A stretch of 42,041 bases of DNA from an uncultured Thermoanaerobaculia bacterium (GTDB lineage: Bacteria > Acidobacteriota > Thermoanaerobaculia > Multivoradales > CAZRFU01), in NCBI GenBank assembly GCA_964599475.1, contig CAZRFU010000048.1:1-42041 (forward strand), written 5' to 3'. A model generated the notes under the pieces. That model was given only the letters and a program-made list of their open reading frames with translations, had not been told where the DNA came from and searched no databases. Positions 13,432-40,292 of this stretch are shown here, one piece after another. Position numbers and translations under genes: made by a program. Position 1 is the first letter of the stretch. Each line of letters starts with the position of its first letter.

Positions 13432-13450
13432 TCTCGTGGAGGAATCAACC

Positions 13451-15460
13451 ATGTCAGCTCGCCTCGCGTCCAGCCTGATGGCGCTTGCTCTTGCCCTGGT
13501 CACGGGCACCGGCATCGCCCAATCGACCAACTTCACCTACCAGGGCCGCCTGCTGCAAGGCAACACACCGGCCAACGGTCTGTTCGACTTCGAGTTTCGC
13601 GCCTTCGACGATCCTTCGGGCGGCAGCCAGGTGGGATTCGTCTCGACCCATCTGAACGTCGACGTCGACCGCGGGCAGCTGCAGGTCGTGGTCGACTTCG
13701 GCCCCGGGGTGTTTGTCGGTGACCCGCTGTGGATCGAAATTTCGATGCGCCCAGCAGGTGCCGGCCCGTACGACATCCTGAGCCCGCGCCAGCTGGTCAC
13801 GCCCGCACCTCTGGCGATCAACGCCGACACCGTCGACGGCTTGGATTCGACCGAGCTGCAGGGGCAAACCGGCCCAGCCGGCCCCCCCGGGCCGGTCGGC
13901 GCGCCCGGCATCGATGGCCTCGACGGCACCGCGGTGCTGCACGGCGCCGGGGTTCCGAGCGACGGCCTCGGCATCGACGGGGACTTCTTCCTCGATACCA
14001 CCTCCACGAGCCTCTGGGGCCCCAAGGCCGGCGGCACCTGGGTCGGATCCGGGCCGGTTGCCTTGATCGGTCCGACCGGCGCCCAAGGTCCGCCGGGGGC
14101 CACCGGTCCCGCAGGTCCGGCAGGCCCCCAGGGTGACACCGGCGCGACCGGTGCCACCGGTGCGACAGGCGCAACGGGAGCAACGGGTCCGCAGGGCATC
14201 CCCGGTCTCGACGGCCGCACCGTGCACTCCGATGCAGCCTCTCCAGGTGACGGCGTCGGCGCTGACGGCGACTTCTTCATCGACACCACCGGGCCGGCAC
14301 TCTGGGGCCCGAAGGCCTCCGGAACCTGGGCCGGCACCGGTCCGACCTCGATGGTTGGGCCAACCGGCGCGACGGGAGCCCAAGGTCCACAGGGTGATCC
14401 CGGTCCGCAGGGACCGATCGGCGCCACCGGGCCGCAGGGCGCCACCGGGCCACAGGGCGCGGTTGGTCCGCAGGGCCCTGCCGGGCCCCAGGGACTCCAA
14501 GGCGACGCCGGCCCAGCTGGACCGCAAGGTCCTGCGGGACCCCAGGGATCCCAGGGCGACCCCGGCCCAACCGGACCGCAGGGCCCCGCCGGCCCACAAG
14601 GGCTGCAAGGCGACACCGGCCCCGCCGGACCGCAAGGTGATCCCGGGATCCAAGGCCCTGCCGGCGCTACCGGCCCACAAGGTTCCGCCGGCCCCCAGGG
14701 AGACCCCGGCGCGACCGGAGCCCAAGGAGATCCCGGGCCGCCAGGGCCTCCCGGGGCACAAGGGCCGATGGGTCCGCAGGGGCCCCAGGGTGAACAAGGG
14801 ATCCAGGGCGAACCGGGCCCGGCCGGGCCCAGCGGCACCCCGGGTGGTGGCACCAACCGCGTGATCCGATGGAACGTCTTCAGCACCTACGACCAGAATG
14901 CCGGCTGGCTGGCCGCGAACAACGCCGACCTGTTCGGGGGCGTCAACCCGTCGAACTGGACCGACAACAACTACCGCGCCGACCAGATGAGCAGCAACAA
15001 GGACGTTCTACGCGCGCTGCTGACCCGCAAGGGGTACCCCGGCAACGACATGTTGCTGTACGCCGAAACCTGGGGCTACTACTCCTCGACCAACGGCCGG
15101 GTGGTGGTGGCGCTGGTGCGGATTCGCAACACCACCTTGGCGCCGATCGACTGGAACGTACGCTTCCACCACACCTGCTACCAGAACTGGAGCGAGCTTG
15201 CGAGCATCGCCGTCAATGGGGTCTTGCACTGGAGCTCCGCCCCACCGGCACTGAACTGCTCCTCGCAGACGCCGCTCAACACCACCATCTCGATCCCCGC
15301 CAACCGCACCAGCAGCGTGGTCTTCGTCTCGACCTCGAGCATACCGTCGGGCACCACCCGTTCGACCCTGATGGCCTTCTCGAACAACACTTTCCTGCTG
15401 CCGGCCGGGCTCGAGCTGGTCGACGACTTCGAAACCGCCACCGGAGGCTGGGAGCAGTAG
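13451..15460 (+). CDS. Secreted collagen-like triple-helix repeat protein with N-terminal FTYQGRL... domain and a sequon-rich C-terminal globular domain
   Basis: GGAGGA RBS before the ATG at 13451. Signal peptide. Three G-X-Y runs (~200 residues in total). Internal duplicate G(I/A)DGDFF(L/I)DTT...LWGPKA(G/S)GTW(V/A)G(S/T)GP. C-terminus [14 protein letters not shown] loosely resembles the shared tail. The C-terminal domain has many N-x-T/S. Confidence 0.85.
13860..14830 (+). repeat. GGN-rich collagen-encoding tandem repeats, including a perfect (GAT)5-coding run (~14139-14190)
   Basis: Read directly. Explains the long proline-rich antisense ORFs 13454..14797 and 13537..14886. Confidence 0.7.
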
Positions 15461-15467
15461 CGTCGAG

Positions 15468-15555
15468 CCGGTGGGTGCACCGGCGCGCTGATGGGGCCGG
15501 CGAGCGGCGCTGCAACCGGAGGGGACCGGGGACCGGGGACCAGGGACTTTTCCGG
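15468..15555. repeat. Intergenic repeat copy D: GGTGGGTGCACCGG near-palindrome, then GGAGGGGACC GGGGACC GGGGACC AGGGAC (G4 motif on + strand), then TTTTCC
   Basis: Immediately after the collagen-like gene TAG. Confidence 0.55.
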
Positions 15556-15754
15556 AGCGCGCATCCGCCGACACCAAGGTCCGCCCCGGGGGCTTCGATG
15601 AGGCCTCCGGGGTTCGCCTCAGGTGGCTTCCTGCTTGGTACACTCGTCGGGCCCGAGGCGGTCCGGCGACGGCCTCGAATGAGCCGGTGGGCGAGGGATC
15701 TTCGCCATTCCTCCCACACCGGCCTCGCCCGGCCACCACCATCAGGAGACCGCC

Positions 15755-17407
15755 TTGTCGACGTTGCGAGCCTCGCGCCTTCATCTCACCGCCTGCCTCC
15801 TTCTGACCGCCACCGGCACCGCGTCCTTTGCCGCAACCCTGGAGGCACCGCGCAAAGTCCAGGCAGGAGCCGAGATCACCGTGCAGTGGTCGGCCACCGT
15901 CGGCGAGGGGGACTTCATCAGCCTCGACCCTTCCGGCGCCCCCGACCACGAATACGGCGATTGGGTCTACCCCGGTGACGAGAGCACCGTCACCTTTCAG
16001 GCGCCGGGAGCTCCGGGCTCCTACGCGGTGCGCTACCACTCGGGTGGGGCCGGCTACAAAGTCTTGGCGACGGCACCGGTGGAGGTCGTCGCAGCCACCG
16101 CGACGGTGCGTGCGCCGGCGAGCGCAGCGGCTGGAGCCACGATCGAGGTTTCGTGGGACGGTCCCCTCAACCAGGGTGACTTCGTCAGCATCGACCCCGC
16201 CGGCGCCCCGGACCACGAGTACGGCGCCTACGTCTACGCCGACCGCGGCAATCCCGCCTCCTTGCCGGCACCCGACAGCGCCGGACCCTACGAAGTGCGC
16301 TATCACCTCGGCGCCAGTGGCTACGCCGTGATCGGATCGAGCCCCCTGACGGTCTCCGCCACCAGCGCCAGCGTCAAAGTCGCCACCCCCGTCGTGGCCG
16401 GCGAAACCTTCGAGGTTGCCTTTACCGGGCCCAACAACGAGAACGACTTCATCACCATCGTCCCCGAGGGCACTGCCGAGCGAGAGTACGGCAACTGGGC
16501 GGCGACTCGCCTCGGCAGCCCGGCGAAGCTCGAGGCGCCCAAACGAGCCGGTCGCTACGAGGTGCGCTACGCCACCGGCCAGGACTACCGCACGCTCGCG
16601 CGCGCCGCGGTCGAAGTGAGCCCTGGCCGACGCGGATCGCTGCGGGTGGTGGGCCGGACCGGCGGCACTGCGGCGACGGCTCCGGGAGCGGTCGAGGTGA
16701 TCCTCGACGCTTCGGGCAGCATGCTCCAGAAGATCGAAGGGACGCGGCGCATCGAGCTCGCCCGTGCTGCCCTGCTCGACCTGACCGGCTCGGCGCTCTC
16801 CGCCGGGACGCCTTTCGCCCTGCGCGTCTTCGGTCATCGCGAGGCCAACTCCTGTCGCACCGATCTCGAGCTGCCGCTCGCGGCGCTCGATCCGGCCAAG
16901 GCGTCCGCCACGATTGGGTCGATCGAGGCCAAGAACCTCGCCAAGACCCCAATCGCCGACTCCCTTCGGCGCGTGCGCGAGGACCTCGCCGCGGCTTCCG
17001 GGCGGCGAGTTGTGGTGCTGATCACCGACGGCGAGGAAACCTGCGGCGGCGACCCGGCCGCAGCGATCCGTGAGCTGCGCCAGGCAGGCATCGAGGTCGA
17101 GGTGTCGATCGTCGGTTTTGCCATCGACCAGCTGGCGCTCAAAGAACAGTTCCGCTCCTGGGCCAAGCTCGGTGGCGGGCTCTACCTCGATGCTGCCGAC
17201 GGCGAAGCGCTGCAGAAGGCGGTGCGCGGCGCGGTCGCGACGAGTTTCGATGTCGTTCAGGGCGGAAAGGTCATCACGACCGGGGCGGTCGGTGGCCCCG
17301 CGATTGACCTGCCGGCCGGAGGCTACGCGGTGCAAGTCGCCGGCCGGACCGTCGGCGAGGTGAGCATCGCCGCCGGCAAAGAAGTGGCGTTCACGCTGCC
17401 ACACTGA
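15755..17407 (+). CDS. Secreted VWA-domain protein with three tandem ~95-aa N-terminal repeat domains
   Basis: TTG start with a CAGGAGA RBS. Signal peptide. Three repeats carrying G(D/N)F(I/V)S(L/I)DPAGAPDHEYG...YEVRYH. C-terminal VWA fold with a DxSxS MIDAS motif (ILDASGSM) and ITDGEE. Confidence 0.8.
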   Translation: MSTLRASRLHLTACLLLTATGTASFAATLEAPRKVQAGAEITVQWSATVGEGDFISLDPSGAPDHEYGDWVYPGDESTVTFQAPGAPGSYAVRYHSGGAGYKVLATAPVEVVAATATVRAPASAAAGATIEVSWDGPLNQGDFVSIDPAGAPDHEYGAYVYADRGNPASLPAPDSAGPYEVRYHLGASGYAVIGSSPLTVSATSASVKVATPVVAGETFEVAFTGPNNENDFITIVPEGTAEREYGNWAATRLGSPAKLEAPKRAGRYEVRYATGQDYRTLARAAVEVSPGRRGSLRVVGRTGGTAATAPGAVEVILDASGSMLQKIEGTRRIELARAALLDLTGSALSAGTPFALRVFGHREANSCRTDLELPLAALDPAKASATIGSIEAKNLAKTPIADSLRRVREDLAAASGRRVVVLITDGEETCGGDPAAAIRELRQAGIEVEVSIVGFAIDQLALKEQFRSWAKLGGGLYLDAADGEALQKAVRGAVATSFDVVQGGKVITTGAVGGPAIDLPAGGYAVQVAGRTVGEVSIAAGKEVAFTLPH

Positions 17408-28071: not shown

Positions 28072-30138
28072 ATGACTGCCTCTGTAGCCTCGCCGGCGAG
28101 CGCCCGGATCCTTCGCCATGCCTACATGACCCTCGCACGCGAGCTCGACTCGCGGTTCGAGAACCTCCTTCTGACCGGGCGCATCAGCAAGTGGTACAGC
28201 GAGGTCGGCAACGAGGCAACGACTGTCCCTGCCGGATTGGCTCTGGGTCCAGGGGATGTGCTGTGCTCCTTGCACCGGGACCTCGGCGCGATTCTGGCCT
28301 ACTACCTCGATCCAGCCCGGACCTTCCCAGCCCTCGGCCTGGGTCAGGCCGACGGGCGCCGACCCGCGCCCGAAGACGTCCTCTACCGCTTGGCCTGTCA
28401 GCTGCTCGGCAAAGGGGATGGCTTCTCGCAAGGTGTCGAACGTTCATTCCACTATGCCTGGACGGACCCGGACGCGGATCTGTGGCATCTCGGCATGATC
28501 AGTCATCTCGGCTCGATGATCCCGGTGGCCGCCGGGGCAGCATTCGCCCGGAGGTTCAAGGATACCGATCGGGTCGCCATCAACTTCATCGGCGACGGCG
28601 GCACCTCGACCGGCGACTTCCACGAGGGCCTGAACATGGCTGCAGTGTGGAAGCTGCCGCTGGTGCTGGTGGTCGAGAACAACCGCTACGCTTTCTCGAC
28701 TCCCACGAGCGCCCAGTACGCGGCTCGTCAACTGGCCGATCGTGGCCCCGGGTATGGCATCCCGGGCGTGGTCGTCGACGGCAACGATCCAGACGCTGTC
28801 GCCGCGGTCCTCGAGACTGCCATCGGCAGAGCTCGCGCAGGGGAGGGCCCAACCCTGGTCGAGGCCATGCTCGGCCGGATGCGAGGCCACAGCGAGGGTG
28901 ACGACTCACTCAAGGTCGTGCCCCCCGACGAGCTTGCCGTGTACCAGGCAGCTGACCCGGTTCCCACCTACCAGCGGCGGCTGCTCGAGGAGGGTGTCCT
29001 CGACCAGGATACCGCCGCAGCCATTGCGACTCGTTGCCGAGAGCTCGTGGAGGAGATGCTCGGCCGCAGCCTCGACGCAGCGCCACCCGCCGTGTCGATT
29101 GCCCGCCGCAGCGTCTTCGCCGAGGCCCCCGCGGTCGTCCGAGCGAGCTCCGCCGCGCCTGCCGACGGTGCCACGACGACCTACGTCGACGGCCTGCACC
29201 AGGCGCTGCGGGAAGAGCTCGAGCGCGACCCGGATCTGGTGTTGATGGGCCAGGACATCGGGGTTTTCGAGGGTGCCTTCCGCATCACCAAAGGGCTCTG
29301 GGCGCGCTGGCCGAAACGCGTGCTCGACACCCCCATCGCCGAAAGCGGCACCATCGGAATCGCCTCGGGTGCGGCCCTTCTGGGCGTGCCCGTGGTCGTC
29401 GAGATGCAGTTCGGCGACTTCGTCACCTGCGGCTTCAACCAGATCGTGAACCTCGCCGCCAAGGCGTTCTACCGCTGGCAGTTGCCATGCCCGATCGTGG
29501 TCCGGCTGCCGGTCGGCGCGGGAGTCGGCGCGGGCCCCTTCCACTCGCAGAGTCCCGAGGCGTGGTTCGCTCACGCCGCCGGCCTCAAGGTCATCTGCCC
29601 TGCAACTGCCCGCGACGCCAAAGGTATGCTCAAGGCCGCCATCCGCGATCCCAACCCGGTCATCGTGTGTGAGCACAAGTTCCTCTATCGGCGAATCAAA
29701 GAAGTGCTGCCCGAAGGGGACTGGACCGAGCCACTCGGCGAAGCTGCGATCCGTCGCAGCGGCAGCGACGTGACCCTGATCGGTTGGGGTGCCACGACCT
29801 GGACCTGCCTGGAGGCCGCCGAGACCTTGGCGCAGGAAGGCATCGCCGCCGAAGTTGTCGACCTGCGGTCAATCGTCCCCTTCGACGAGGCCACCGTCCT
29901 CGCCTCGGTCAAGAAGACCGGCCGAGCCATCGTCGTCCACGAGGCCCAGATGACCGCGGGCTTCGGCGGAGAGGTCGTCGCACGCATCGCCGAAGCCGCG
30001 TTCGAATGGCTCGATGCCCCAGTGCGGCGGATCACGTGGCCCGACTGTCCGGTGCCCTATTCGCGAGTTCTCGAAGCCGATCTCATCCCGACGGCCGCAG
30101 CCGTGGTGGAGGCCACCCGGGCTCTGGTTCAGCAATAG
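28072..30138 (+). CDS. Fused alpha/beta E1 component of a TPP-dependent 2-oxoacid (pyruvate or branched-chain) dehydrogenase
   Basis: N-terminal half with the TPP-binding motif (GDGGTSTGDFHEGLNMAAVWKLPLVLVVENNRYA). C-terminal half is E1-beta/transketolase-like (…LMGQDIG…GAFRITKGL…EHKFLYR…). No E2 or E3 gene in the window. Confidence 0.8.
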   Translation: MTASVASPASARILRHAYMTLARELDSRFENLLLTGRISKWYSEVGNEATTVPAGLALGPGDVLCSLHRDLGAILAYYLDPARTFPALGLGQADGRRPAPEDVLYRLACQLLGKGDGFSQGVERSFHYAWTDPDADLWHLGMISHLGSMIPVAAGAAFARRFKDTDRVAINFIGDGGTSTGDFHEGLNMAAVWKLPLVLVVENNRYAFSTPTSAQYAARQLADRGPGYGIPGVVVDGNDPDAVAAVLETAIGRARAGEGPTLVEAMLGRMRGHSEGDDSLKVVPPDELAVYQAADPVPTYQRRLLEEGVLDQDTAAAIATRCRELVEEMLGRSLDAAPPAVSIARRSVFAEAPAVVRASSAAPADGATTTYVDGLHQALREELERDPDLVLMGQDIGVFEGAFRITKGLWARWPKRVLDTPIAESGTIGIASGAALLGVPVVVEMQFGDFVTCGFNQIVNLAAKAFYRWQLPCPIVVRLPVGAGVGAGPFHSQSPEAWFAHAAGLKVICPATARDAKGMLKAAIRDPNPVIVCEHKFLYRRIKEVLPEGDWTEPLGEAAIRRSGSDVTLIGWGATTWTCLEAAETLAQEGIAAEVVDLRSIVPFDEATVLASVKKTGRAIVVHEAQMTAGFGGEVVARIAEAAFEWLDAPVRRITWPDCPVPYSRVLEADLIPTAAAVVEATRALVQQ

Positions 30139-30171: not shown

Positions 30172-32220
30172 CTAGCGTCGACGCTTGAGGTCCTCGAGGC
30201 GCCGGCGTGCATCCTGCAGCTCGACCCGATCCGGGTCGAGCTGCGTGAGGATCTTGACGGCGACCTCGGCCTGCTGTATCTGCCCGGCCTCGAGGAAGGC
30301 TTCGAGCTGCGCGAGCCCGACTACCACCGACTGGCGTCGGCGGGAAGCCTCTTCGGCGCGGCTGACCTCGGCAAACATCGCCGCCGGCTTGCCGCTCTTG
30401 GGAGCCAGCCTCTCGAGCTCCAGCGCGACCTCGCGCGCGCCGCCGAAATCCTGCGCGCGGACCCGTTCGCGAAAGCGCGTCTCGAAGCTGCGCTCGGCGC
30501 TCTGCGCCGCGACCTGGGATTGAAGCTCGTCGAGCCGACGCCGATACGAGGCGATCGTGACACGGGGCACCGTCGACAACGACTCGAGCGCGGCCAGGGC
30601 CTGTTCGGCTGCCGCCGCATCGCCGCCATCGAGGGCTCGATCCAGCTCCAGACGACGAGCCTCGCCGGTCGTTGCCGCCGCCTCCTGGTGCTCGGCCTCG
30701 CGGATCTCGGCCAGCAGTGCGGCCGACATCTTTCCCGCTGGGTCGTACCTTTCGAGCTCCTGCAGTGCCCTGCGAGCACCGTCGAGGTCACTGCGAGCCA
30801 GTGAGCGACGCCCCTGCGACATCGCGTCTTCCGCACGCTTGGCCTGCTGCGCCTCGTCGCCGAGGAGCTTGACCCAGGCCTCGTAGTCGCCGCGCTTGGG
30901 ATGATTGGGGTAGATCTCCAACAGGGTTTCGAGGGCCAGCGCGGCGAGGGTCTGCTGCTTCTCCAGCAGGTACTTCTCGAGCATCTGCTCGGCTTGACGC
31001 ACCTGCTCGCGGCGCTTGGCGACCTGCTCGTGCTCTGCCAGGCGCGCCTTGAGCTCCGCCAGGCCCTGCATTCGCGGGTTGGCAGCCTCGAGCCGGCGGA
31101 CGTGCTCGCGAGCCTCCTCGAAACGGCCCTCACGCAGCGCGATTTCGGCGTCCGTGTGGACCTTCGAGGTTTCCTTGACACGCCTGGCTGCCTCGTCGAT
31201 CTGGGCCAGCAGCTGGAGGCGCTCGTCCATCGAGAGCTCCGAGCTCTTCTTGGGCGCTTGCTTGACCGACGGCGCAGGACCGGGCGCTGCCGGGGCGGGG
31301 GGCTTGGCAGCGGGGACGGCCGGAGGGGGAGCGGGGATGGCAAAGCCACGCGAGTCGTCGCGGCCCAACGTCTGTCCCACCTCGACCAGGGCCTTGATGT
31401 ATTCGATCGCGTCGTGGAAGCGGTTCTCCCGATCCCGCGCCAGCCCGCGCATCACCACCTGCTCGAGGCCGGCCGGCAGGTTGCCCGGCCCGAGGCGCTC
31501 CGACAGCGGGATCGGATCCTCGCTGAGGCGCTTGAGGACGTACCCGTGTTGGCTCTCGGACTCGAAGGGTGGCAGGCCGCTGAGCATCTCGTAGAGCACG
31601 AGCGAAAAGGAATAGAGGTCCGAGCGAGCGTCGAGAGCCTCACCACGCCGATAACCCGCCTGTTCCGGCGAGCAGTACTGAAGCTTGCCGAGGAATGTCC
31701 CGGCCTGGGTCAGCTCGAGGTTCGACCCGAGGTCCTTGGCCAACCCGAGGTCGATGATCTTGACGATCTCGCGATCCTTGCGGTCCGTCGTCAACATGAG
31801 GTTGTCGGGGCTGATGTCACGGTGAATGACGCCGCCGGAGTGGATCGCATCCAGACCTCGCAGGGCCTGAACTCCGAGCTCGACCGCCAAGGCCGCCGGC
31901 AGCGGTCCGCGGCCGCGGATCCGTGCGCCGATGTCCTCGCCCTCGATGTGCTCCCAGATCATGTAGAAGCGTCCATCGGGGAGCTGCGAGTAGTCGTAGA
32001 GAATGGCGACGTTGGGGTGCTTGATCTGAATGGCGGTGCGCGCCTCCTGATGGAAACGCTGCGCCGCACCTTCGTCCGCTGCGAGATCCGCGCGCAGCAC
32101 CTTCAGCACCCGCAGCTGCTGCAGGTGGAGGTGTCGCACGAGGTACACCTCGCCCATTCCCCCGCTTCCCAGGCGTCGGAGGATCTCGTACTTGCCGTCG
32201 AGAAGGCCGCTCAAGCTCAC
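30172..32220 (-). CDS. Ser/Thr protein kinase (Hanks-type) with Pro/Ala-rich linker and C-terminal helical/TPR-like repeat region
   Basis: All catalytic motifs present: GSGGMGEVY, VLKVL (Lys), HRDISPDN, DLG, SPEQ. No TM helix. Confidence 0.85.
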   Translation of the reverse strand: MSLSGLLDGKYEILRRLGSGGMGEVYLVRHLHLQQLRVLKVLRADLAADEGAAQRFHQEARTAIQIKHPNVAILYDYSQLPDGRFYMIWEHIEGEDIGARIRGRGPLPAALAVELGVQALRGLDAIHSGGVIHRDISPDNLMLTTDRKDREIVKIIDLGLAKDLGSNLELTQAGTFLGKLQYCSPEQAGYRRGEALDARSDLYSFSLVLYEMLSGLPPFESESQHGYVLKRLSEDPIPLSERLGPGNLPAGLEQVVMRGLARDRENRFHDAIEYIKALVEVGQTLGRDDSRGFAIPAPPPAVPAAKPPAPAAPGPAPSVKQAPKKSSELSMDERLQLLAQIDEAARRVKETSKVHTDAEIALREGRFEEAREHVRRLEAANPRMQGLAELKARLAEHEQVAKRREQVRQAEQMLEKYLLEKQQTLAALALETLLEIYPNHPKRGDYEAWVKLLGDEAQQAKRAEDAMSQGRRSLARSDLDGARRALQELERYDPAGKMSAALLAEIREAEHQEAAATTGEARRLELDRALDGGDAAAAEQALAALESLSTVPRVTIASYRRRLDELQSQVAAQSAERSFETRFRERVRAQDFGGAREVALELERLAPKSGKPAAMFAEVSRAEEASRRRQSVVVGLAQLEAFLEAGQIQQAEVAVKILTQLDPDRVELQDARRRLEDLKRRR

Positions 32221-32408
32221 GTCACGCTCACGATCGCCGGTATCTTAGCAGCAGGCCGGAGCCCCTCGGCGGACCGCCGCTCGGCTCTTGCCGCATTCCG
32301 TCGTAACCCTGCCGCGCCGCGGCTAAGCGCAGAGGCTAGAGTCATTTGCATCCCTCACCCCGCTTGCGCTCGCGGCCGGCCTCTGGCATCCTCGGAGCAG
32401 GAGGCCGT

Positions 32409-34310
32409 ATGAGCGACGAACGACTCGGATCCTGGGTGGTTCTCCGCAGACTCGCCGATGATCTGCTGGGGCCGACCTGGCGACTGGCGCGAGCCGACCT
32501 CCAAGGCGGTGTCGAGCGCTTGGCTTTGGGCCGCGCCTTCATCGGTGCCGGGTTGGCGGCCGAGGGTCGCAACCTCGCGGCAGTCGTCGATCATCCGTTC
32601 GTCGCGACCACCGCCGATCTCTTCGATCATCAGGGCCAATGTATCGTCGCGTGGGACTACACCTCCGGGCATTCGCTGCGGGAGATCCTCGAGCGGGCGA
32701 GCGATCGCATGATGCCCCTCAACCCCGGCTTGTGCCTGCTGATCGCGGAGCGGGTGGCGCAGGGATTAGCCGCCGCCTCGCAGCGCCAGCTCGATGGCAA
32801 GGCACTCCACCACGGCCTGCTGCGGCCGGAGCTGGTGTGGGTCACCAACGATGGCGAGGTCAAGATACTCGGCTTCGAGATCGGCAGAGCCTTGGCGGCT
32901 CGGCTCGCGGGCTCTCCTGCCTTCGGCCCCTTCCTCGCACCCGAAGTGCGCGCCGGCAGCCCGGTCGAGGCGCGCGACGACGTCTACTCGCTGGCTGCGG
33001 TGCTCCATGCGGCGCTCACCGGCATCGATCCGCCGAGCCATGATGCGGACCGCGCGGCCGAAGACGCCACCAGTGCCGAGGACGGGGCGCCTTTGCCTGC
33101 CGAGTTGACCAGGCTGCTCGCCTCGTGTCTCGGTCCTCGCAGTGGCCGGCCGGCCAACCCCGGCGCGCTGCACGACGCACTGCGCGAAATTTCCCTGACC
33201 GCCGCACGAAGGGTCGGTCCGTTCGAGCTGGCGTACGCCATTCACGGGCTGTTCGGCGACGAAATCACCACCGAGGCCCGAGAGCTAGAACGGGGAGGGC
33301 GTCCGGAGCCGGTGGGTGGACCGGCATCGCCGCGAGCGGCATCGGTTCCCGCTGGTCCGCAGCCGCTTCCGACCCAGCCGGTGGTGGTGGCGAGCTTCGC
33401 CGACGAGCTCCGTGCGGAACCGGCGAAACCTCGACGGGCTCCGTGGCTGCCGATCGCCGCAGGCATTGCTGTCGTGGCGGTGGGTGTCGGCCTGGTGCTG
33501 TCACGAGACCAGGGAGGCTCGCCGCCCGCTGCCACTCCCGCAGCCCAACCGGCACCTGTCGCATCGCCGACGGTGCCGGCCGGCCCATCGCCGGAGGAGT
33601 TGCAGGCGCAGATCCGCGCTCTGGTGGAACAACGGACGGGAGCCGTTGCCGCCGAGATGCGGGATCAACAGGAGGCGGAGATCAAGGCGCTCCAGGAGCA
33701 ACTGGCTGCGGCCCAGGCGGCGACAGTGGCGGTGCCGGAGCCCGCCCCCAGGCCTACACCTCCCGTGCCCACACCCGTTCCGGTCACGAGCCCGCACGCG
33801 GGCACCAGCCAGCCCCCGGCATCGCCGGCGACGGCTGCGCCGCCCGAACCGTCCGCGAACGCACAAGCAGCTCCCGCAACTCCTGCGGCAGCGAGCACCG
33901 TCGCCTCGAGCCCCGCGGCAGCCGCACCGCCGCCGCAGGCGGCACCGCGCGTGGAACCGGCCGCCCCGCCGCGCGCAGCCACCTCCACACCACCCGCTAC
34001 ACCATCTGCTACCGCCATCGCCACGCCGGGCCCGGGCGTCACCCCGCCCACGATGTTGACCTTCGCCAAACCGGAGTACCCCCTGCTGGCCCGTCGCACC
34101 AAGGTGCAGGGTACCGTCATCCTCTCGATCCTCGTCGACGAACAGGGTCGTGCGACGGACATCAAGTTCCTCAAGCGGGTCGAGCAGGATGTCGGACTGA
34201 ACGAGGCGGCCGAAAAGGCTGCCCGCGCGTCGACCTGGCGCCCCGCCTCCAAGGACGGCAAGCCGGTCAAGATGTGGTTTACCCTCCCGGTCCCCTTTGC
34301 GCTTGAGTAG
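32409..34310 (+). CDS. Kinase-like pseudokinase domain fused via a TM helix and Pro/Ala-rich linker to a TonB C-terminal domain
   Basis: AGGAGG RBS. Kinase-fold remnants without catalytic residues: no Gly-loop, HHGLLRPELVWV in place of HRDxxxxN, LGFEIG in place of DFG, and APEV kept. TM helix LPIAAGIAVVAVGVGLVL. C-terminal TonB_C (…PEYPLLARRTKVQGTVILSILVDEQGRATDIKFLK…). Divergent from the Ser/Thr kinase gene, 188-bp gap. Confidence 0.75.
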   Translation: MSDERLGSWVVLRRLADDLLGPTWRLARADLQGGVERLALGRAFIGAGLAAEGRNLAAVVDHPFVATTADLFDHQGQCIVAWDYTSGHSLREILERASDRMMPLNPGLCLLIAERVAQGLAAASQRQLDGKALHHGLLRPELVWVTNDGEVKILGFEIGRALAARLAGSPAFGPFLAPEVRAGSPVEARDDVYSLAAVLHAALTGIDPPSHDADRAAEDATSAEDGAPLPAELTRLLASCLGPRSGRPANPGALHDALREISLTAARRVGPFELAYAIHGLFGDEITTEARELERGGRPEPVGGPASPRAASVPAGPQPLPTQPVVVASFADELRAEPAKPRRAPWLPIAAGIAVVAVGVGLVLSRDQGGSPPAATPAAQPAPVASPTVPAGPSPEELQAQIRALVEQRTGAVAAEMRDQQEAEIKALQEQLAAAQAATVAVPEPAPRPTPPVPTPVPVTSPHAGTSQPPASPATAAPPEPSANAQAAPATPAAASTVASSPAAAAPPPQAAPRVEPAAPPRAATSTPPATPSATAIATPGPGVTPPTMLTFAKPEYPLLARRTKVQGTVILSILVDEQGRATDIKFLKRVEQDVGLNEAAEKAARASTWRPASKDGKPVKMWFTLPVPFALE

Positions 34311-34361: not shown

Positions 34362-34925
34362 ATGCTGGTGGTTCGCTCGACTGGTTCGCTACGCCTCATC
34401 ACCCAGGCCGATCAGGCGGCTTTGGCGGTGCGGCTGCTGTCGCTCTGGCTGCTCGATGGCGTCCCGCAGCATCCGCGCCGCGCCGAGCTCCTGGCGGCGG
34501 TGCGCGGCCACGGCCTCGGCTGGCAGGGCGCAGACGCCGCGCCGACGCTCGACTCGCGGGGCCGCCCCTGCTCGATGTCCGGACTGCCACCGGCTGCTCT
34601 CGTGAGGATCTTCGAGGAGACCCTCGATCGCATCCAGGGGCGCGGCTGGGTCGCGTTGGTCGTTCGCGGCTATCTCCGGGAGCAGATTGCGACAGCGGTC
34701 GGACCGGGCTCGGGTGAGCTCATCGCGCGGATCGAGGAGGCCCAGGCGCGTGCCCTGGAGGCTGCGAGCGAGTCGAGTGGGCGCGGAATCGGTCGCCTCG
34801 AGGCGGATCTTGCAGAGGACATCGAGCTCGTCCGCACCGTCGACGCCGTCTCGCAAGTCGCCTGTGGGGTGCCCGTGGAGGCGCTCCTCAGCGTCTGCGC
34901 GCCCAAGCCACAGCCAAAGGGGTAG
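34362..34925 (+). CDS. Hypothetical protein
   Basis: ATG start 51 nt after the TonB-fusion gene stop. No recognised motifs. Composition is less Arg-rich than the antisense artefacts. Confidence 0.4.
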   Translation: MLVVRSTGSLRLITQADQAALAVRLLSLWLLDGVPQHPRRAELLAAVRGHGLGWQGADAAPTLDSRGRPCSMSGLPPAALVRIFEETLDRIQGRGWVALVVRGYLREQIATAVGPGSGELIARIEEAQARALEAASESSGRGIGRLEADLAEDIELVRTVDAVSQVACGVPVEALLSVCAPKPQPKG

Positions 34926-35242
34926 CACTTTCGCCGTTCCCGCTGGCGGGCCCGACGACGCTGCGACTTGCGGCTCGCGAGATTGCCGATCGTCGCTACG
35001 AGAGTCTGGGCGACCTCGTCGCCGCGCTTGGACGAGCGCGCTGGCAAACCATCTCTATCCTGTTCGAACCGCTAACCTCGGGTTGACGACCTGCGGCCCG
35101 CGCATTTCGGCACCGGCCCCGTTTCACATTGCCGAGCACAAATGCCACGACTTGCACTATGATCGTGGCGTTCTGCTCAAACAGCCACCTGCAGGGTTCG
35201 CCTGCGGGTCTGTGTGCGCACCGACCCAAGGAGAGGTTTTTC

Positions 35243-36535
35243 ATGAAGAAGTTCTTCGCCCCAACCCTCTGCGTCGCTGCGTTGGCGATGGCGAGCCCGG
35301 CTTCGGCCGTGCTCGACACCATCGACGCGGTGCCCGGAGCGACCCTGCTGATCCCGTACTTCGCCGTCGACGCGAACGACCCGAACGGGCTCACCACCCT
35401 GTTCTCGGTCAACAACGCTTCGGCTACTGCGGTCCTCGCCCACGTCACGGTGTGGACGGACCAGTCGGTGCCGACCCTCGACTTCGACATCTACCTGACC
35501 GGGTACGACGTCCAGACGGTCAACGTTCGCGACATCCTGATCAACGGCAACCTGCCCCGGACCGCGTCCGACGGCCAGGATCCGTCCGACACCATCAGCC
35601 CCCAGGGCCCGCTGTCGCAGGACATCAACTTCGCCAGCTGCGGCGGCACCCTGCCGTACGTCAACCCCGGCATCTCCTCCGGCTTCTTGGCCCACCTGCA
35701 GGCCTGGCACACCGGCAATCAGTCGCCGGTGACCGGCAACTGTGCCGGCCAGGACCTCGGTGACGGCATCCTGCGCGGCTACATCACCATCGACACCACC
35801 AACCAGTGCTCGCTGCTGTTCCCGGCCGACACCGGCTACTTCGGCCCCGGTGGCACCGGTATCGCGACCAACCAGAACGTCCTCTGGGGTGACTGGTTCC
35901 TCGTCGACGCCACCAACAACTTCGCCGAGGGCTTCTCCGCGGTCCACGTCGAGGCCGATCGCACCGGCCAGGCCTACGGCCCCGGCGACTACACTTTCTA
36001 CGGCCGCTACGTGGCTTGGGCCGGTATCGATGGTCGCGAGCCGCTCGCCACCTCGTTCGCCGCCCGCTACGCCACCGGCGGTGCCTTCGACGGCACGGCC
36101 TACACCGTCTGGCGCGACTCGAAGACCACCCCGGTCGCCTACAACTGCGCCCTCGCCGGCCCGTCCTGGTACCCCCTCGGTGCCGAGCAGGTCGTGATCT
36201 TCGACGAAGAAGAGCGCATCTTCGAGCCGTCGGGCTGCCCCTCGGGTGACCCGACCTGCACCCCGGACGGCGTGCTGATTCCGGCCGAGGCCAACCGCAT
36301 CGCGGTTGGTGGCGAGCTGTACCCGCTGCCCCCGGGCTTCGAGTTCGGCTGGTCGTACCTCAACCTGAACACCACCGTGGTGGGCCAGGTTGCCGGCCAG
36401 ACCGATCCGGCCGCTGCCCAGGCGTGGGTGAGCTGGAGCTTGACCGCCGAGGGCCGCTTCGCGGTGGGTCTCGACGCGATTCAGCTCGACAACGCCTCGA
36501 ACGCCAACCACACCCTTCTGCCGATCGGCGACTGA
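35243..36535 (+). CDS. Secreted hypothetical protein (~430 aa), Asn/Thr/Gly-rich with conserved Cys pairs
   Basis: AAGGAGAGG RBS. Signal peptide MKKFFAPTLCVAALAMASPASA. Followed by a textbook terminator. No family recognised. Confidence 0.75.
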   Translation: MKKFFAPTLCVAALAMASPASAVLDTIDAVPGATLLIPYFAVDANDPNGLTTLFSVNNASATAVLAHVTVWTDQSVPTLDFDIYLTGYDVQTVNVRDILINGNLPRTASDGQDPSDTISPQGPLSQDINFASCGGTLPYVNPGISSGFLAHLQAWHTGNQSPVTGNCAGQDLGDGILRGYITIDTTNQCSLLFPADTGYFGPGGTGIATNQNVLWGDWFLVDATNNFAEGFSAVHVEADRTGQAYGPGDYTFYGRYVAWAGIDGREPLATSFAARYATGGAFDGTAYTVWRDSKTTPVAYNCALAGPSWYPLGAEQVVIFDEEERIFEPSGCPSGDPTCTPDGVLIPAEANRIAVGGELYPLPPGFEFGWSYLNLNTTVVGQVAGQTDPAAAQAWVSWSLTAEGRFAVGLDAIQLDNASNANHTLLPIGD

Positions 36536-37453: not shown

Positions 37454-39700
37454 TCAGGTGTGAGGATCGCGCATGGACCGGGCGGGCGCGGCGTCGAGCA
37501 ACTCGACCGGGGCGCCCGACCACGCCACGATGCGGCCGATCCGCTCGGCACCCCCGGGAAGTTGCTGCAGCTGCTCGAGGAGCCGAGGAGCACTCGCGGG
37601 CGGTACGACGATCAGCAGGCCGCCCGCAGTCTGCGGATCGGCGGCGAGTGCCGCGCGCGCAAGCTCGTCTGTCGGCGGCGCCAACGCGGCGCCTTCGAGC
37701 ACGGCCCTGTTCTGGGCGTGGAAGCTGCTGCGTTCGCCGGTCTCGAGCAGCTCCAACGCCCCGGGCAGGGCCGGAAGGGTGGCGAGCTCGATCTCGGCGG
37801 TAACCCGCGGCTCCCGAGGCAACACGGTGACGAGGTGCCCCACCAGCCCGAACCCGGTCACGTCCGTGCACACCCGGAGCTCGGACTTGCTGAGAACGGC
37901 GGCGGCGGACGCGTTGCCGGTTTCGAGGTGCCGGTACAGAGCTTCGACCCAGCGTCCCTCCGCTCGCCCTGCCATGTCGGCGTGGAGCAACACCCCCGAG
38001 CCCAGCGCGCGAGTGAGCAGGATGACGTCCCCGATCTGGACCGCGCCGCGCAGCAGGCGGCCGGGTAGCTCCGGCTGACCATCGATCGAAAATCCAACCA
38101 GAAGCTCGGCTGCTCGGGCGGTGTGACCGCCGAGCAGCGGGACGCCGCGGCCTTCGAGCACACTGCGGGCGCCGAGGAGGATCTGCCGCAGCATCCACAC
38201 CGCCTCGGCCTCGGGCAGGTCCAGCGGTAGTGCAACGATCGCCTGGGCGGCCCGTGGAGTCACTGCCTTGGCATCGAGATCCGACAGGGTGTTGATGGCG
38301 GCCACTCGACCGAAGAGGTACGGATCGTTGGTGAAGGCACGCAGGAGCTCGAGGTTCGAGACCACCACCTCCGAGCCCAGGGTCCGCCACGCGACGACAT
38401 CGTCGGCGGCCTCGATCCCGAGGACGACCTGATCGGGCCGCGGACTCCCCGCGAGGTCTCCCAACGCCTGCTGCAGTGCCGACGGCCCGAGCTTGGCGGC
38501 ACACCCGCCGCACACCATTACCGCCGCCGGGTCCGTGGTCGACATCGGAGCGAGTCTGAAGCGTTCGACGAAACGCCGGTCGATGTGGTCCTTCCAGTGC
38601 ATCACCCAGCGGCCTGCGACGATCACGCCGTTGCGCTCGCCGAGAGCCTCGCCGTCGCCGAGATTGAGGAGCGCGAGGAAGTGCCGTTGCGGTCGCCATC
38701 GCCGGAGAGGGCGCCCTGCGAGCCGGGCCTCGAGGTTTTCGAGCAGCAGCGGCCCCGCGCGCACAGCGTACACGCCGGCCCGCAGAACCCACGGAAAGGT
38801 GGGGAAGGCGGCGCAGTCACCGACCGCAAAAAGCCCGGGGACGCCCTTGACTTCGAGGGTTTCCTCGACTTCGAGGAAACCTGCGGAGTCGAGGGCCAGT
38901 CCAGCGGTCTCGAAGTCCCGGTGCGCCGCGGCACCGGCAGCCCAGACTACGAGGTCGGCCGGCCGAAATCCACCACCCGCGAGGGCCACGCCCGCGGGTT
39001 CCACAGCGTTCACCGTCACACCACACTCCACTGCGATCCCACGATCCTCGAGCTCCAGCCGTGCCCGCTCGGCCAGCTTCGTCGAGCGCTCCGACAGGAG
39101 CCTCGGGCCCGCCGCCAGCAGCTGCACCCGCGACTCATGTCCGCGGTGGCGGGCGCGAGCCCCAAAGGTGGCGGCGAGCTCGACTCCCGCCGCGCCGCCA
39201 CCAACCACCACCAGATCGACGCCGTTGCGGCGCTCGCGGCAGAGCTCGTCGAACCGCTCGATGGCGCTCAGCAGGCGCCCGAGAGGCCGGGTCAGCACCG
39301 CACGCTCGACCACTCCGGCCGCGCCCCCGTCGGCCCCGGTCGAGCCGATGTCGAGGGAGGCCACGTCGAACTCGAGAGGAGGTCGATCGGCGATCAGGAT
39401 CGTCCGGGCCTCCGGGTCGACGCCCTTGGCGCGGGCCAGGATGATCCGGACGCCCGCGCGCCGGGCCAGCTTCACGGCATCGATCTCGAGGTCTTGCTGT
39501 GTGTAGCGTCCCTCGATCAGGCCGGGGACCATTCCCGAGTAGAGCGCCACCGCCGCGTCGACGACCAGCGTGACATCGAGGTCGGGGCGAGGACGCATGG
39601 CCCAGGCCCGCAGCACCTGCACGTGGGCGTGGCCGGCCCCGACCAGCACCACTCGGGGCCGGGCGCCTCTTGCTCCGATCGAAGTCATTGCTCGAGCCAC
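37454..39700 (-). CDS. selD: Bifunctional fusion: N-terminal FAD/NAD(P)-dependent pyridine nucleotide-disulfide oxidoreductase (NDH-2-like) and C-terminal selenide, water dikinase SelD (Cys-type)
   Basis: N-terminal VVLVGAGHAHV and VVVGGGAAGVELA Rossmann motifs. The C-terminal half aligns with E. coli SelD: VCGGCAAK~GCGCK, DPYLFGRVAAINTLSDL~NPFDFGRIAATNAISDI, VTDVTGFGLVGHL, DPQTAGGLLIVV. Cys, not Sec, at the active-site position. Confidence 0.8.
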   Translation of the reverse strand: MARAMTSIGARGARPRVVLVGAGHAHVQVLRAWAMRPRPDLDVTLVVDAAVALYSGMVPGLIEGRYTQQDLEIDAVKLARRAGVRIILARAKGVDPEARTILIADRPPLEFDVASLDIGSTGADGGAAGVVERAVLTRPLGRLLSAIERFDELCRERRNGVDLVVVGGGAAGVELAATFGARARHRGHESRVQLLAAGPRLLSERSTKLAERARLELEDRGIAVECGVTVNAVEPAGVALAGGGFRPADLVVWAAGAAAHRDFETAGLALDSAGFLEVEETLEVKGVPGLFAVGDCAAFPTFPWVLRAGVYAVRAGPLLLENLEARLAGRPLRRWRPQRHFLALLNLGDGEALGERNGVIVAGRWVMHWKDHIDRRFVERFRLAPMSTTDPAAVMVCGGCAAKLGPSALQQALGDLAGSPRPDQVVLGIEAADDVVAWRTLGSEVVVSNLELLRAFTNDPYLFGRVAAINTLSDLDAKAVTPRAAQAIVALPLDLPEAEAVWMLRQILLGARSVLEGRGVPLLGGHTARAAELLVGFSIDGQPELPGRLLRGAVQIGDVILLTRALGSGVLLHADMAGRAEGRWVEALYRHLETGNASAAAVLSKSELRVCTDVTGFGLVGHLVTVLPREPRVTAEIELATLPALPGALELLETGERSSFHAQNRAVLEGAALAPPTDELARAALAADPQTAGGLLIVVPPASAPRLLEQLQQLPGGAERIGRIVAWSGAPVELLDAAPARSMRDPHT

Positions 39701-39836
39701 GTCACGCTCCGCTGGGAAGACCCGCGCCCACCCGGGGCGCCGAGGCCGGCCTCAACAGACGAGAGCCTATCAGCGCCGCTCCTCGCCCAGCACCAGGCCC
39801 GATCCGACACAGTATGCTCTGCGGGGAGGCTCGATC

Positions 39837-40292
39837 GTGCTCAGCGGACGAGAAAAGCAAGACTTCGTGGCATGGCTGCGCGCCCGCGGACAACGCGTGA
39901 CACGCGAGCGGCTGGCCCTGCTCGACGAGATCTTCACCCGCCACGAGCACCTCGACGCGGACTCGGTCTTGGCGGCGCTGCGCGCCAGAGGCGCGAAGAC
40001 GTCTCGAGCGACGGTCTACCGCAACCTCAATCTGCTGGTCGAGGCCGGCTTCGTGCGCCGTGCGCGCCTGGCTGCGGATCGCTGGGTCTACGAGCACGTC
40101 CACCGCGGCCAGGCTCACGATCATCTGGTCTGCGAGGAGTGCGAACGGATCATCGAGTTCGTCAGCCCCGGGGTCCGTGCGATGCTCAGTGAGATCGCCC
40201 GGGCTCACGGTTTCAGCGCCACGCGCCACGCGCTGCAGCTGTACGGAAGCTGCCTCGACGCCACGTGCCCACATCGCCCGGCTGCTGCGTGA
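39837..40292 (+). CDS. Fur-family metalloregulator (Fur/Zur/PerR type unresolved)
   Basis: GTG start with a GGGAGG RBS. Winged-helix N-terminus plus HDHLVCEECERIIEF and a C-terminal CxxxxC. Divergent from the SelD-fusion gene, 136-bp gap. Confidence 0.75.
   Translation: MLSGREKQDFVAWLRARGQRVTRERLALLDEIFTRHEHLDADSVLAALRARGAKTSRATVYRNLNLLVEAGFVRRARLAADRWVYEHVHRGQAHDHLVCEECERIIEFVSPGVRAMLSEIARAHGFSATRHALQLYGSCLDATCPHRPAAA

Follow-up and report, generated by a model that had tools for sequence, protein, structure and literature searches.

The 42,041-nucleotide contig examined here (CAZRFU010000048.1 of assembly GCA_964599475.1, from an uncultured Thermoanaerobaculia bacterium; hereafter the window) carries a gene whose product joins a kinase fold stripped of its catalytic residues to a TonB-type C-terminal domain by way of a single transmembrane (TM) helix and a long Pro-rich spacer. 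Directly beside it, and divergently oriented, lies a gene for a soluble Hanks-type Ser/Thr kinase. We favor, with about even confidence, a reading wherein the fusion protein is a non-catalytic, receptor-like pseudokinase scaffold of the cell envelope and not a conventional TonB. The evidence comes from the conservation of the degraded kinase fold, the structure of the periplasmic portion, the existence of a protein family with an active sister group, and the genomic context of that family.

A conserved kinase fold that lacks catalytic residues

The N-terminal part of the fusion protein falls narrowly below the Pfam cutoff for Pkinase (31.2 bits, E 2e-7, cutoff 31.7). A Foldseek search against the Protein Data Bank (PDB), however, matches this domain to 1976 kinase chains at E ≤ 0.001, the top match being the kinase domain of Mycobacterium tuberculosis PknI (5m09_B; E 2e-12, target TM-score 0.77, 22 to 24% identity). 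Matches to the NCBIfam models "antiphage MADS6," "lanthionine synthetase," and "BREX PglW" were also returned, but these lie far under their cutoffs and represent generic kinase-fold similarity.

The catalytic motifs were read from an alignment with the neighboring kinase and 90 relatives. The Gly-loop region reads LADDLLGPTW instead of GxGxxG, with the acidic residues E17 and D18 occupying glycine positions. The β3 lysine is replaced by Arg42 (in the region VVLLRVF), HRD by H135-G-L, the catalytic-loop lysine by arginine, the asparagine by leucine, and DFG by G155-F-E. The VAIK lysine, HRD aspartate, and DFG aspartate are therefore all absent from a fold that is otherwise kept, which is how a pseudokinase is defined at the sequence level. 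A first-pass annotation of this DNA had proposed a kinase fold in which every catalytic element is degenerate, and the alignments, an AlphaFold2 (AF2) model, and Foldseek agree with that proposal. The same annotation gave the altered motifs as HHG and LGF; the losses are real, but the register was one residue out, and HGL and GFE are correct.

Other hallmarks of the fold persist. The activation segment is of normal length, and the APE motif, the D191-x-Y-S-L(-G) segment, and the subdomain XI arginine (Arg247) are retained and are invariant or nearly so in the family. Residues H135, P140, P178, E179, D191, and R247 are invariant among the relatives, and the substitutions themselves (K to R, HG[F/L/C], N to L, and GF[E/G]) are common to 85 of 90. 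The most conserved stretch of the entire protein is a helix that follows the kinase fold (TTFNLAFFMH), which we used as a family signature for the locus scan. Within it, F272, L274, A275, and L281 are invariant in all 85 pseudokinase members compared, and I286 and E289 are present in 84. Because the replacement residues are conserved in their own right, selection appears to act on a non-enzymatic role. Judged by this pattern of sequence conservation, the domain is a conserved pseudokinase under purifying selection and not a decaying kinase.

We considered whether the fold might instead support an atypical enzymatic or ligand-binding activity through relocated residues, for example Arg25 and Arg42. 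These arginines, located in β2 and β3, are near-invariant in the family and sit where the phosphates of ATP would be expected to bind. SelO and SidJ provide precedents for atypical activity, and the authors of the bSTK atlas speculate that the K-to-R pseudokinases of the ActPs2 family may bind non-canonical ligands. Nevertheless, the catalytic base, the metal-binding asparagine and aspartate, and the Gly-loop are all gone, the acidic E17 and D18 stand where its glycines would be, and no alternative catalytic constellation was identified. We therefore regard such an activity as very improbable.

A TonB-type domain on the periplasmic side

At its greatest length, the open reading frame (ORF) for the fusion protein begins with a TTG codon at 32346 and ends at 34310 on the forward strand (654 aa); this position, like that of the kinase ORF at 30172 to 32220 on the reverse strand, is as originally annotated. 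The ATG codon at 32409 is the likelier start, as it is preceded by the Shine-Dalgarno-like sequence GGAGCAGGAGG and yields a 633-aa product that is identical to the protein called in public annotation (database protein P0001). The AF2 model has a predicted local distance difference test score (pLDDT) above 90 for residues 1 to 300, the helix at 395 to 440, and residues 540 to 633.

Lys and Arg residues flank the N-terminal side of the sole hydrophobic segment (P0001 residues 345–366), and by the positive-inside rule the kinase fold is therefore cytoplasmic and the TonB_C domain periplasmic. The fusion protein is thus a single-pass inner-membrane protein, with about 345 residues ahead of the TM helix versus the short N terminus of TonB. 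Hydropathy and composition confirm the single TM helix and the long Pro/Ala-rich periplasmic linker that had been noted previously. The spacer is 30% Pro and 29% Ala and should be long enough to span the periplasm, although it is not of the (Glu-Pro)n(Lys-Pro)n type found in E. coli. Across the family, the distance from the TM helix to TonB_C ranges from 155 to 206 residues (median 175). Between the membrane and the spacer is a helix that is kept both in the pseudokinase family and in its active-kinase relatives, and that could be a coiled coil or dimerization element.

The C-terminal domain is a genuine TonB-type domain. Its last 79 residues match Pfam TonB_C (PF03544) with 59.4 bits (cutoff 24.6), NCBIfam TIGR01352 (tonB_Cterm) scores 42.9 bits, above its cutoff, and a PDB sequence search returns TonB chains only (E 4e-5). 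For the fold search, the periplasmic half of the protein was modeled separately. Foldseek aligns it, at an rmsd of 1.8 Å and a target TM-score of 0.84, with the C-terminal domain (CTD) of Pseudomonas aeruginosa TonB from the FoxA complex (6i97_D). It also matches E. coli TonB (1u07), 2gsk_B, and TonB in BtuB and FhuA complexes, with target TM-scores of 0.79–0.84 over the FoxA, BtuB, and FhuA complexes. The YP positions carry tyrosine in 71 and proline in 82 of 85 family members. The earlier description of a bona fide TonB_C domain thus stands, and neither of the two weaknesses that could have undermined the annotation (the lack of a kinase fold, or a spurious TonB_C similarity without the YP motif) applies. 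The long periplasmic helix also raised the candidate TolA, but this identity was ruled out because TolA domain III gives only E 0.26 to 0.4 and a TM-score of approximately 0.4, and the surrounding genes include no tolQRB-pal set.

TonB and TolA of E. coli are coupled to their motors through a Ser/His signature (S-x3-H, SHLS-type) of the TM helix. The corresponding helix of the fusion family lacks this Ser-His signature. Histidine occurs in the TM helix of none of 90 members, and the 19-residue TM core contains on average 0.02 strongly polar residues in the same set.

A pseudokinase family with an active sister group

A word-indexed search returned approximately 100 proteins of 620 to 680 aa that combine PF00069 with PF03544, corresponding to about 100 clusters at 50% identity, and nearly all derive from metagenome-assembled genomes (MAGs) of Thermoanaerobaculia or other Acidobacteriota. 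Where they are named at all, the members are called "TonB family protein," and both Pfam domains are precomputed in public databases. An exhaustive search of 1.84 billion representative sequences yielded 182 matches at E ≤ 1e-30. Among the best 150 of these are 89 proteins with pseudokinase plus TonB_C, 27 in which a catalytically canonical kinase is joined to TonB_C, and 13 with tandem TonB_C domains. The combination of Pkinase and TonB_C, whose wider occurrence the first-pass annotation had left to be checked, is therefore real and defines a family of about 100 proteins plus an active sister group.

The 27 active kinase-TM-TonB_C proteins are longer (median 1087 aa), and all share the catalytic loop HRD[V/I]SPQN, wherein Ser replaces Lys. 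Several have an N-terminal receiver domain, giving the order receiver, Ser/Thr kinase, TM helix, and TonB_C in 870 to 1340 aa (P0085, P0087, P0093, P0094, P0173, P0211, P0213, and P0215). The active proteins align with the pseudokinases over the periplasmic helix, spacer, and TonB_C domain as well. In a neighbor-joining (NJ) tree, the pseudokinases form one clade, comprising subclades A (the main group), C (with GFG), and B (which includes the window protein), and the active fusions are its sister. Active kinase-TM-TonB_C proteins thus either gave rise to the pseudokinase family or have a common ancestor with it. Most simply, catalysis was lost a single time, in a receptor-type Hanks kinase that had a TonB_C ectodomain.

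Two further observations were made among these sequences. The 13 tandem proteins have the unusual architecture of three to six consecutive TonB_C domains with no kinase fold (including P0177, P0184, P0216, P0230, P0258, and P0266). Members of subclade A (e.g., P0009 and P0012) carry a conserved Thr-rich juxtamembrane motif, DLRE(T/V)TGVREATWPGTRAQ, just before the TM helix. This motif is a candidate phospho-acceptor segment, and it is absent from the linkers of clade B.

Genomic context of the family

At least 14 distinct relatives, which represent subclades A and C and have identities as low as 28%, show the gene order ruvX-yceG(mltG)-fusion on one strand. About 24 to 150 bp separate the fusion gene from the gene ahead of it. 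A lptD-thiolase pair lies beside this cluster on the opposite strand, and in several subclade A loci a gene for an LpoB/CsgG-like lipoprotein is convergent downstream of the fusion gene. This deeply conserved context is the ancestral one. In two loci, L006 (1867–5799) and L007 (1875–6052), tandem paralogs, A followed by B, are located downstream of ruvX-yceG, and the window fusion gene corresponds to the second copy. A DUF3891 gene lies 3′ of the B copy in the window, in L006, and in a further locus (L004), and is often near subclade A loci; it is the one neighbor that stays linked to the B paralog in relatives. Compared with P0126 (241 aa, 99% identical, found on 10 other contigs), the window version of this gene is frameshifted by 1 bp near position 34880, so that either the assembly is in error here or the gene is a pseudogene in the MAG.

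Clade B (P0001–P0005) amounts to only five clusters in 5.8 billion sequences. The window copy is therefore a rare, lineage-specific duplicate, the second paralog of a core family gene, and one could ask if it has any function of its own. The hypothesis that it is a redundant or degenerating copy would explain the small size of the clade, its departure from the ancestral operon, its loss of the Thr-rich motif that subclade A carries, and the faster divergence of the fusion protein (74–79% identity versus 95% for the kinase in the same genome pair). Degeneration is nonetheless quite improbable, given that the 633-codon ORF is intact and has a good ribosome-binding site, and that all family-defining residues are kept. 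Moreover, identity within clade B is 75 to 97% for the TonB_C domain and 56 to 87% for the pseudokinase domain, with the divergence located mostly in the low-complexity linkers.

The same context bears on whether the fusion protein could be a working TonB or TonB/TolA-like transducer, powered by an ExbB/ExbD- or TolQ/R-type motor encoded elsewhere and gated by the pseudokinase through Ser/Thr-kinase signaling. A Pfam scan of the 39 ORFs in the window found no exbB, exbD, or TonB-dependent receptor gene, and among the family loci with Pfam annotation, none had exbB or exbD annotated within approximately 8 kb of the fusion gene. The partner kept in the operon is mltG and not a transport gene, the TM helix has no histidine and hardly any polar residue, and active receptor-type kinases carry the same periplasmic module, which argues for a sensor or anchor role. 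Some features do fit a transducer, including the TonB CTD fold as it occurs in the FoxA, BtuB, and FhuA complexes, the kept YP motif, and a Pro-rich spacer of TonB-like length. TonB-dependent receptors are also numerous in Acidobacteriota, with two encoded near an ortholog of the neighboring kinase in locus L092 and one in L089, and GltJ is a TonB-C protein with large cytosolic domains that operates in a motor-driven machine (PMC11135422). On balance, we consider a transducer unlikely, though it deserves more weight than any other alternative function weighed here. No gene for an FHA protein was seen near any of the fusion loci examined.

The neighboring kinase and the divergent gene pair

The adjacent gene encodes a protein with a strong Pkinase match (130 bits) in which GxGxxG, the β3 lysine, HRD, the asparagine, DLG, and SPE are present. 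Its previous description as an intact Hanks kinase is right as to these catalytic residues, but not as to the catalytic-loop lysine, which is Ser in the sequence HRDISPDN; among 85 kinase loops sampled, this variant is in the minority, with 3 cases. The protein has no TM segment. Its tail had been described as a helical repeat. The A/E/R/L-rich composition and the tetratricopeptide repeat (TPR) matches, which are only weak, make a helical tail of this type plausible, but self-BLAST detected no internal repeats. The kinase belongs to a large Thermoanaerobaculia family, in which the full-length homologs with identities near 50% number more than 120. A close relationship to the active TonB_C kinases was considered and rejected, as the two share only about 32% identity and are generic relatives, despite the HRDxSPxN loop common to both.

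The head-to-head arrangement of kinase and fusion genes was found only in the window and in L004. The L004 kinase is 95% identical, and L004 represents essentially the same organism. In L006 and L007, the other two clade B relatives with readable context, the B paralog is preceded by the A paralog; an ORF upstream of the L006 tandem was examined as a possible truncated ortholog of the neighboring kinase, but gave no significant BLASTP match. Kinase orthologs are found elsewhere. One with 75% identity is located upstream of cox genes and comes from the same sample as the tandem locus L007. Another with 59% identity (L091, 1–8987) directly follows ftsW-murG-murC-ftsQ-ftsA-ftsZ, which hints that this widespread kinase family is linked to cell division. 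A third with 52% identity (L092) lies between a Band_7 gene and an E1 dehydrogenase gene. No fusion gene is near any of these three orthologs.

The E1 dehydrogenase also adjoins the kinase gene in the window, and the two E1 proteins are 68% identical. This fused E1 α/β gene (28072–30138, forward strand, in the window; 10241–12424 in L092) is convergent with the kinase gene here and co-directional with it in L092. This difference in orientation implies a local inversion. Because the head-to-head arrangement recurs only in L004 and kinase orthologs adjoin other genes, the pairing looks like a recent juxtaposition, an accident of gene order. The first-pass annotation had suggested examining whether the linkage is conserved, and it is not, beyond the near-identical L004 locus.

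These findings weigh on the idea that the two genes form a dedicated module with a shared promoter region, in which the kinase phosphorylates the pseudokinase or is allosterically controlled by it. The idea draws on the head-to-head placement of the genes 188 bp apart, seen in L004 as well, on the helical, protein-interaction-type tail of the kinase, and on the ortholog 3′ of ftsZ, which connects the kinase, too, with the envelope or division. Pairs of pseudokinase and kinase are, in addition, a common regulatory logic according to a 2025 review (PMC12599244). However, L004 does not constitute independent evidence, the A paralog takes the place of the kinase gene in L006 and L007, and the three more distant orthologs have other neighbors. 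The adjacency of the kinase to the E1 dehydrogenase is older than its adjacency to the fusion gene, and the kinase family is far wider than clade B (more than 120 homologs versus five clusters). A dedicated module is therefore improbable. A scan of the 188-bp intergenic region revealed no sigma-70-like promoter or terminator consensus, although such a scan is uninformative for this phylum.

Other features of the window

The coordinates of the two genes, their parts, and the gene that follows are compiled in Table 1.

Table 1. Features of the kinase and fusion genes in the window.
Feature	Position	Strand	Basis
Soluble Hanks-type Ser/Thr kinase, 682 aa	30172–32220	−	ORF, Pfam
Kinase domain of the neighboring kinase	~31351–32220	−	
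Pro/Ala linker of the neighboring kinase		−	
A/E/R/L-rich tail of the neighboring kinase	30175–31245	−	
Divergent intergenic region, 188 bp	32221–32408		ORF coordinates
Fusion gene, pseudokinase-TM-TonB_C	32409–34310	+	ORF, Pfam Pkinase and TonB_C, identical database protein P0001
Cytoplasmic pseudokinase domain, residues 1–270	32409–33218	+	Alignments, AF2 pLDDT >90, Foldseek (PknI, Nek2, Stk1 kinase domains)
Family signature helix, residues 271–295	33219–33293	+	Family consensus TTFNLAFFMHNLFRDEIERE; modeled helix, pLDDT 94–98
Disordered Pro/Ala-rich cytoplasmic juxtamembrane linker, residues 296–344	33294–33440	+	pLDDT <50, composition
Single TM helix, residues 345–366, PWLPIAAGIAVVAVGVGLVLSR	33441–33506	+	Hydropathy 2.37
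Conserved periplasmic helix, 49 residues (393–441)	33585–33731	+	Helix in both AF2 models, pLDDT ~90–95
Pro/Ala/Thr/Ser-rich periplasmic spacer, residues 442–540 (99 residues)	33732–34028	+	Composition
TonB-type C-terminal domain, residues 541–633, YP motif Y557-P558	34029–34307	+	Pfam, TIGR01352, PDB matches, Foldseek
DUF3891 gene directly downstream of the fusion gene	34362–35086	+	Pfam DUF3891

Several other genes in the window merit mention. A 468-aa protein (35129–36535, forward strand) has an internal signal-peptide-like start, MKKFFAPTLCVAALAMASPASA, no Pfam match, and a counterpart with 94% identity at the matching position in L004. A 748-aa protein (37454–39700, reverse strand) fuses a pyridine-nucleotide-disulphide oxidoreductase to AIRS/AIRS_C domains and is SelD- or ThiL-like. 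An ORF for a Fur-family regulator (39570–40292, forward strand; PF01475, 100 bits) lies approximately 5.5 kb downstream of the fusion gene and is probably unrelated to it. In the region from 13436 to 17407 (forward strand), the gene for a VWA-domain protein comes after that for a 674-aa protein containing collagen triple-helix repeats (124 bits).

Discussion

A proposed receptor-like scaffold of the cell envelope

Our favored reading, that the fusion protein is a non-catalytic envelope scaffold, can be cast as a mechanism. The TonB_C ectodomain would probably bind a partner in the outer membrane or periplasm by β-strand pairing, the mode in which TonB engages a TonB box, and it might contact peptidoglycan. 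The length of the spacer should suffice to reach the outer membrane, and the periplasmic helix together with the small-residue-rich TM helix may favor dimerization. On the cytoplasmic side, the pseudokinase and its signature helix could form a platform on which active Hanks kinases, or effectors of another kind, dock or are allosterically controlled. By analogy with the MviN pseudokinase and the PASTA kinases of monoderms, this platform may report on or organize envelope biogenesis. Energy transduction driven by ExbB/ExbD is probably not the function of the fusion protein. The adjacent kinase may be a partner, although gene order lends this no support. The coupling between kinase signaling and TonB function that was first proposed for this locus therefore holds in part. 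The evolutionary link between Hanks kinases and TonB_C domains is well founded, but the link to TonB-dependent transport is not, since exbB and exbD were not found in the window or near the annotated family loci and the TM helix is almost without polar residues.

Some considerations temper this interpretation. What we say of binding and signaling, like everything beyond architecture and context, we infer for proteins of uncultured hosts. The window copy is a peripheral paralog. It no longer adjoins mltG and does not carry the Thr-rich motif of subclade A, so it may act differently from the core family. The AF2 model of the fusion protein was built on 35 family sequences and has low confidence in the TM segment, and the NJ tree, a quick reconstruction from distances, carries no support values. 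The requirement for a histidine or polar residue in the TM helix is known from Proteobacteria, and Acidobacteriota may not share it. Furthermore, tonB is often unlinked to exbBD, and missing linkage is thus weak evidence.

A broader possibility, which we put forward only tentatively and consider unlikely on present evidence, is that Thermoanaerobaculia and allied Acidobacteriota possess a diderm counterpart of the PASTA kinases and MviN. Envelope-spanning receptor kinases, and the pseudokinases derived from them, would use TonB-type ectodomains on long spacers to dock onto an outer-membrane or peptidoglycan-associated partner, and the pseudokinase would scaffold Hanks kinases. The docking partner might be the neighboring LptD machinery or the LpoB-like lipoprotein, and the scaffolded soluble kinases might include the ftsZ-linked family to which the neighboring kinase belongs. 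If this were true, strand termination by MltG, outer-membrane biogenesis, and division would be coordinated, and the TonB_C domain would have been repurposed from energy transduction to trans-envelope signaling.

Full-text literature searches for pseudokinases or kinases in combination with TonB turned up nothing of relevance, and the pseudokinase-TonB_C family is, as far as searched, undescribed. The sequences themselves are already public, and the novelty resides in recognizing and delimiting the family, whose signature consists of HG[F/L], GF[E/G], the β3 arginine, and the TTFNLAFFMH helix, with a stable context beside mltG and lptD. The annotation "TonB family protein" probably misstates the role of its members. 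Bacterial pseudokinases are barely explored, and according to the main texts of two surveys, the 2025 review and the bSTK atlas, none of their families has a TonB-type ectodomain or an acidobacterial origin. The new element is a TonB-type ectodomain on a bacterial membrane pseudokinase or receptor-type Hanks kinase, which presents the TonB C-terminal domain as the outward-facing module of a Ser/Thr-kinase-type receptor. This architecture suggests a route by which diderm bacteria could couple cytoplasmic phospho-signaling to conditions in the outer envelope.

Comparison with known systems

The periplasmic half of the fusion protein resembles TonB of E. coli and P. aeruginosa in the fold of the CTD (rmsd ~2 Å over the matches given above), the YP motif, the Pro-rich spacer, and the single TM helix with its N terminus inside. 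The two differ in that the fusion protein has a large cytoplasmic pseudokinase portion, a TM helix without Ser or His, and an extra periplasmic helix, and in that mltG is its operon partner, with no exbBD linkage found.

GltJ and GltG of the Myxococcus Agl-Glt gliding machinery offer an analogy of plan only. The cytosolic domains of GltJ are reportedly a zinc ribbon and a GYF domain, which are not kinase-like. Whereas GltJ works with the AglRQS motor and is encoded in the glt cluster, the neighbors of the fusion genes are ruvX, mltG, lptD, and DUF3891, with no glt or agl genes among them. The shared plan consists of a cytosolic effector domain, a TM helix, a flexible region, and a TonB-C domain, as described for GltJ (PMC11135422).

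The closest structural match of the pseudokinase, PknI, is deposited as a kinase domain and differs in its extracellular part. PknI is said to have been found in an inactive, pseudokinase-like conformation.

The 2025 review and the bSTK atlas distinguish, in their main texts, seven bacterial pseudokinase families: ActPs1-3, GLW, CP1, DYD, and DLHK (PMC12599244). As described there, these families, together with EssB/YukC, resemble the fusion protein in lacking the VAIK lysine, the HRD aspartate, and the DFG aspartate, and several have a TM segment C-terminal to the kinase fold. The main texts of both surveys mention neither TonB nor Acidobacteria. The GLW family is characterized there as proteobacterial, with a poly-Leu β3 and a GLW triplet at the HRD position, and the ActPs families as actinobacterial, with indels such as an activation-loop deletion or a 250-residue insertion. 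Membership in GLW or ActPs2 was ruled out on motifs, taxonomy, and indels, with the distinction drawn from these published descriptions.

Nearer in presumed role is the M. tuberculosis MviN pseudokinase, which is phosphorylated by PknB, recruits FhaA, and controls peptidoglycan synthesis, according to the review (PMC12599244). This MurJ-linked member of ActPs3 is, like the fusion protein, tethered to the membrane and degraded in all its catalytic motifs. It takes part in peptidoglycan regulation as a scaffold that an active Hanks kinase phosphorylates. The core fusion family is, correspondingly, apparently in an operon with the gene for a peptidoglycan enzyme, mltG. The fusion protein has a different origin, however, lacks the activation-loop deletion of ActPs3, and carries TonB_C instead of a carbohydrate-binding domain.

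The PASTA receptor kinases (PknB, StkP, and PrkC; KAPD) share with the fusion protein a layout of kinase fold, single TM helix, and extracytoplasmic binding domain, which in the fusion protein, too, would read the envelope, and the active sister family fits this comparison. The window protein departs from them in being catalytically dead, and its ectodomain is a TonB_C domain on a long spacer, an arrangement that suits a diderm envelope.

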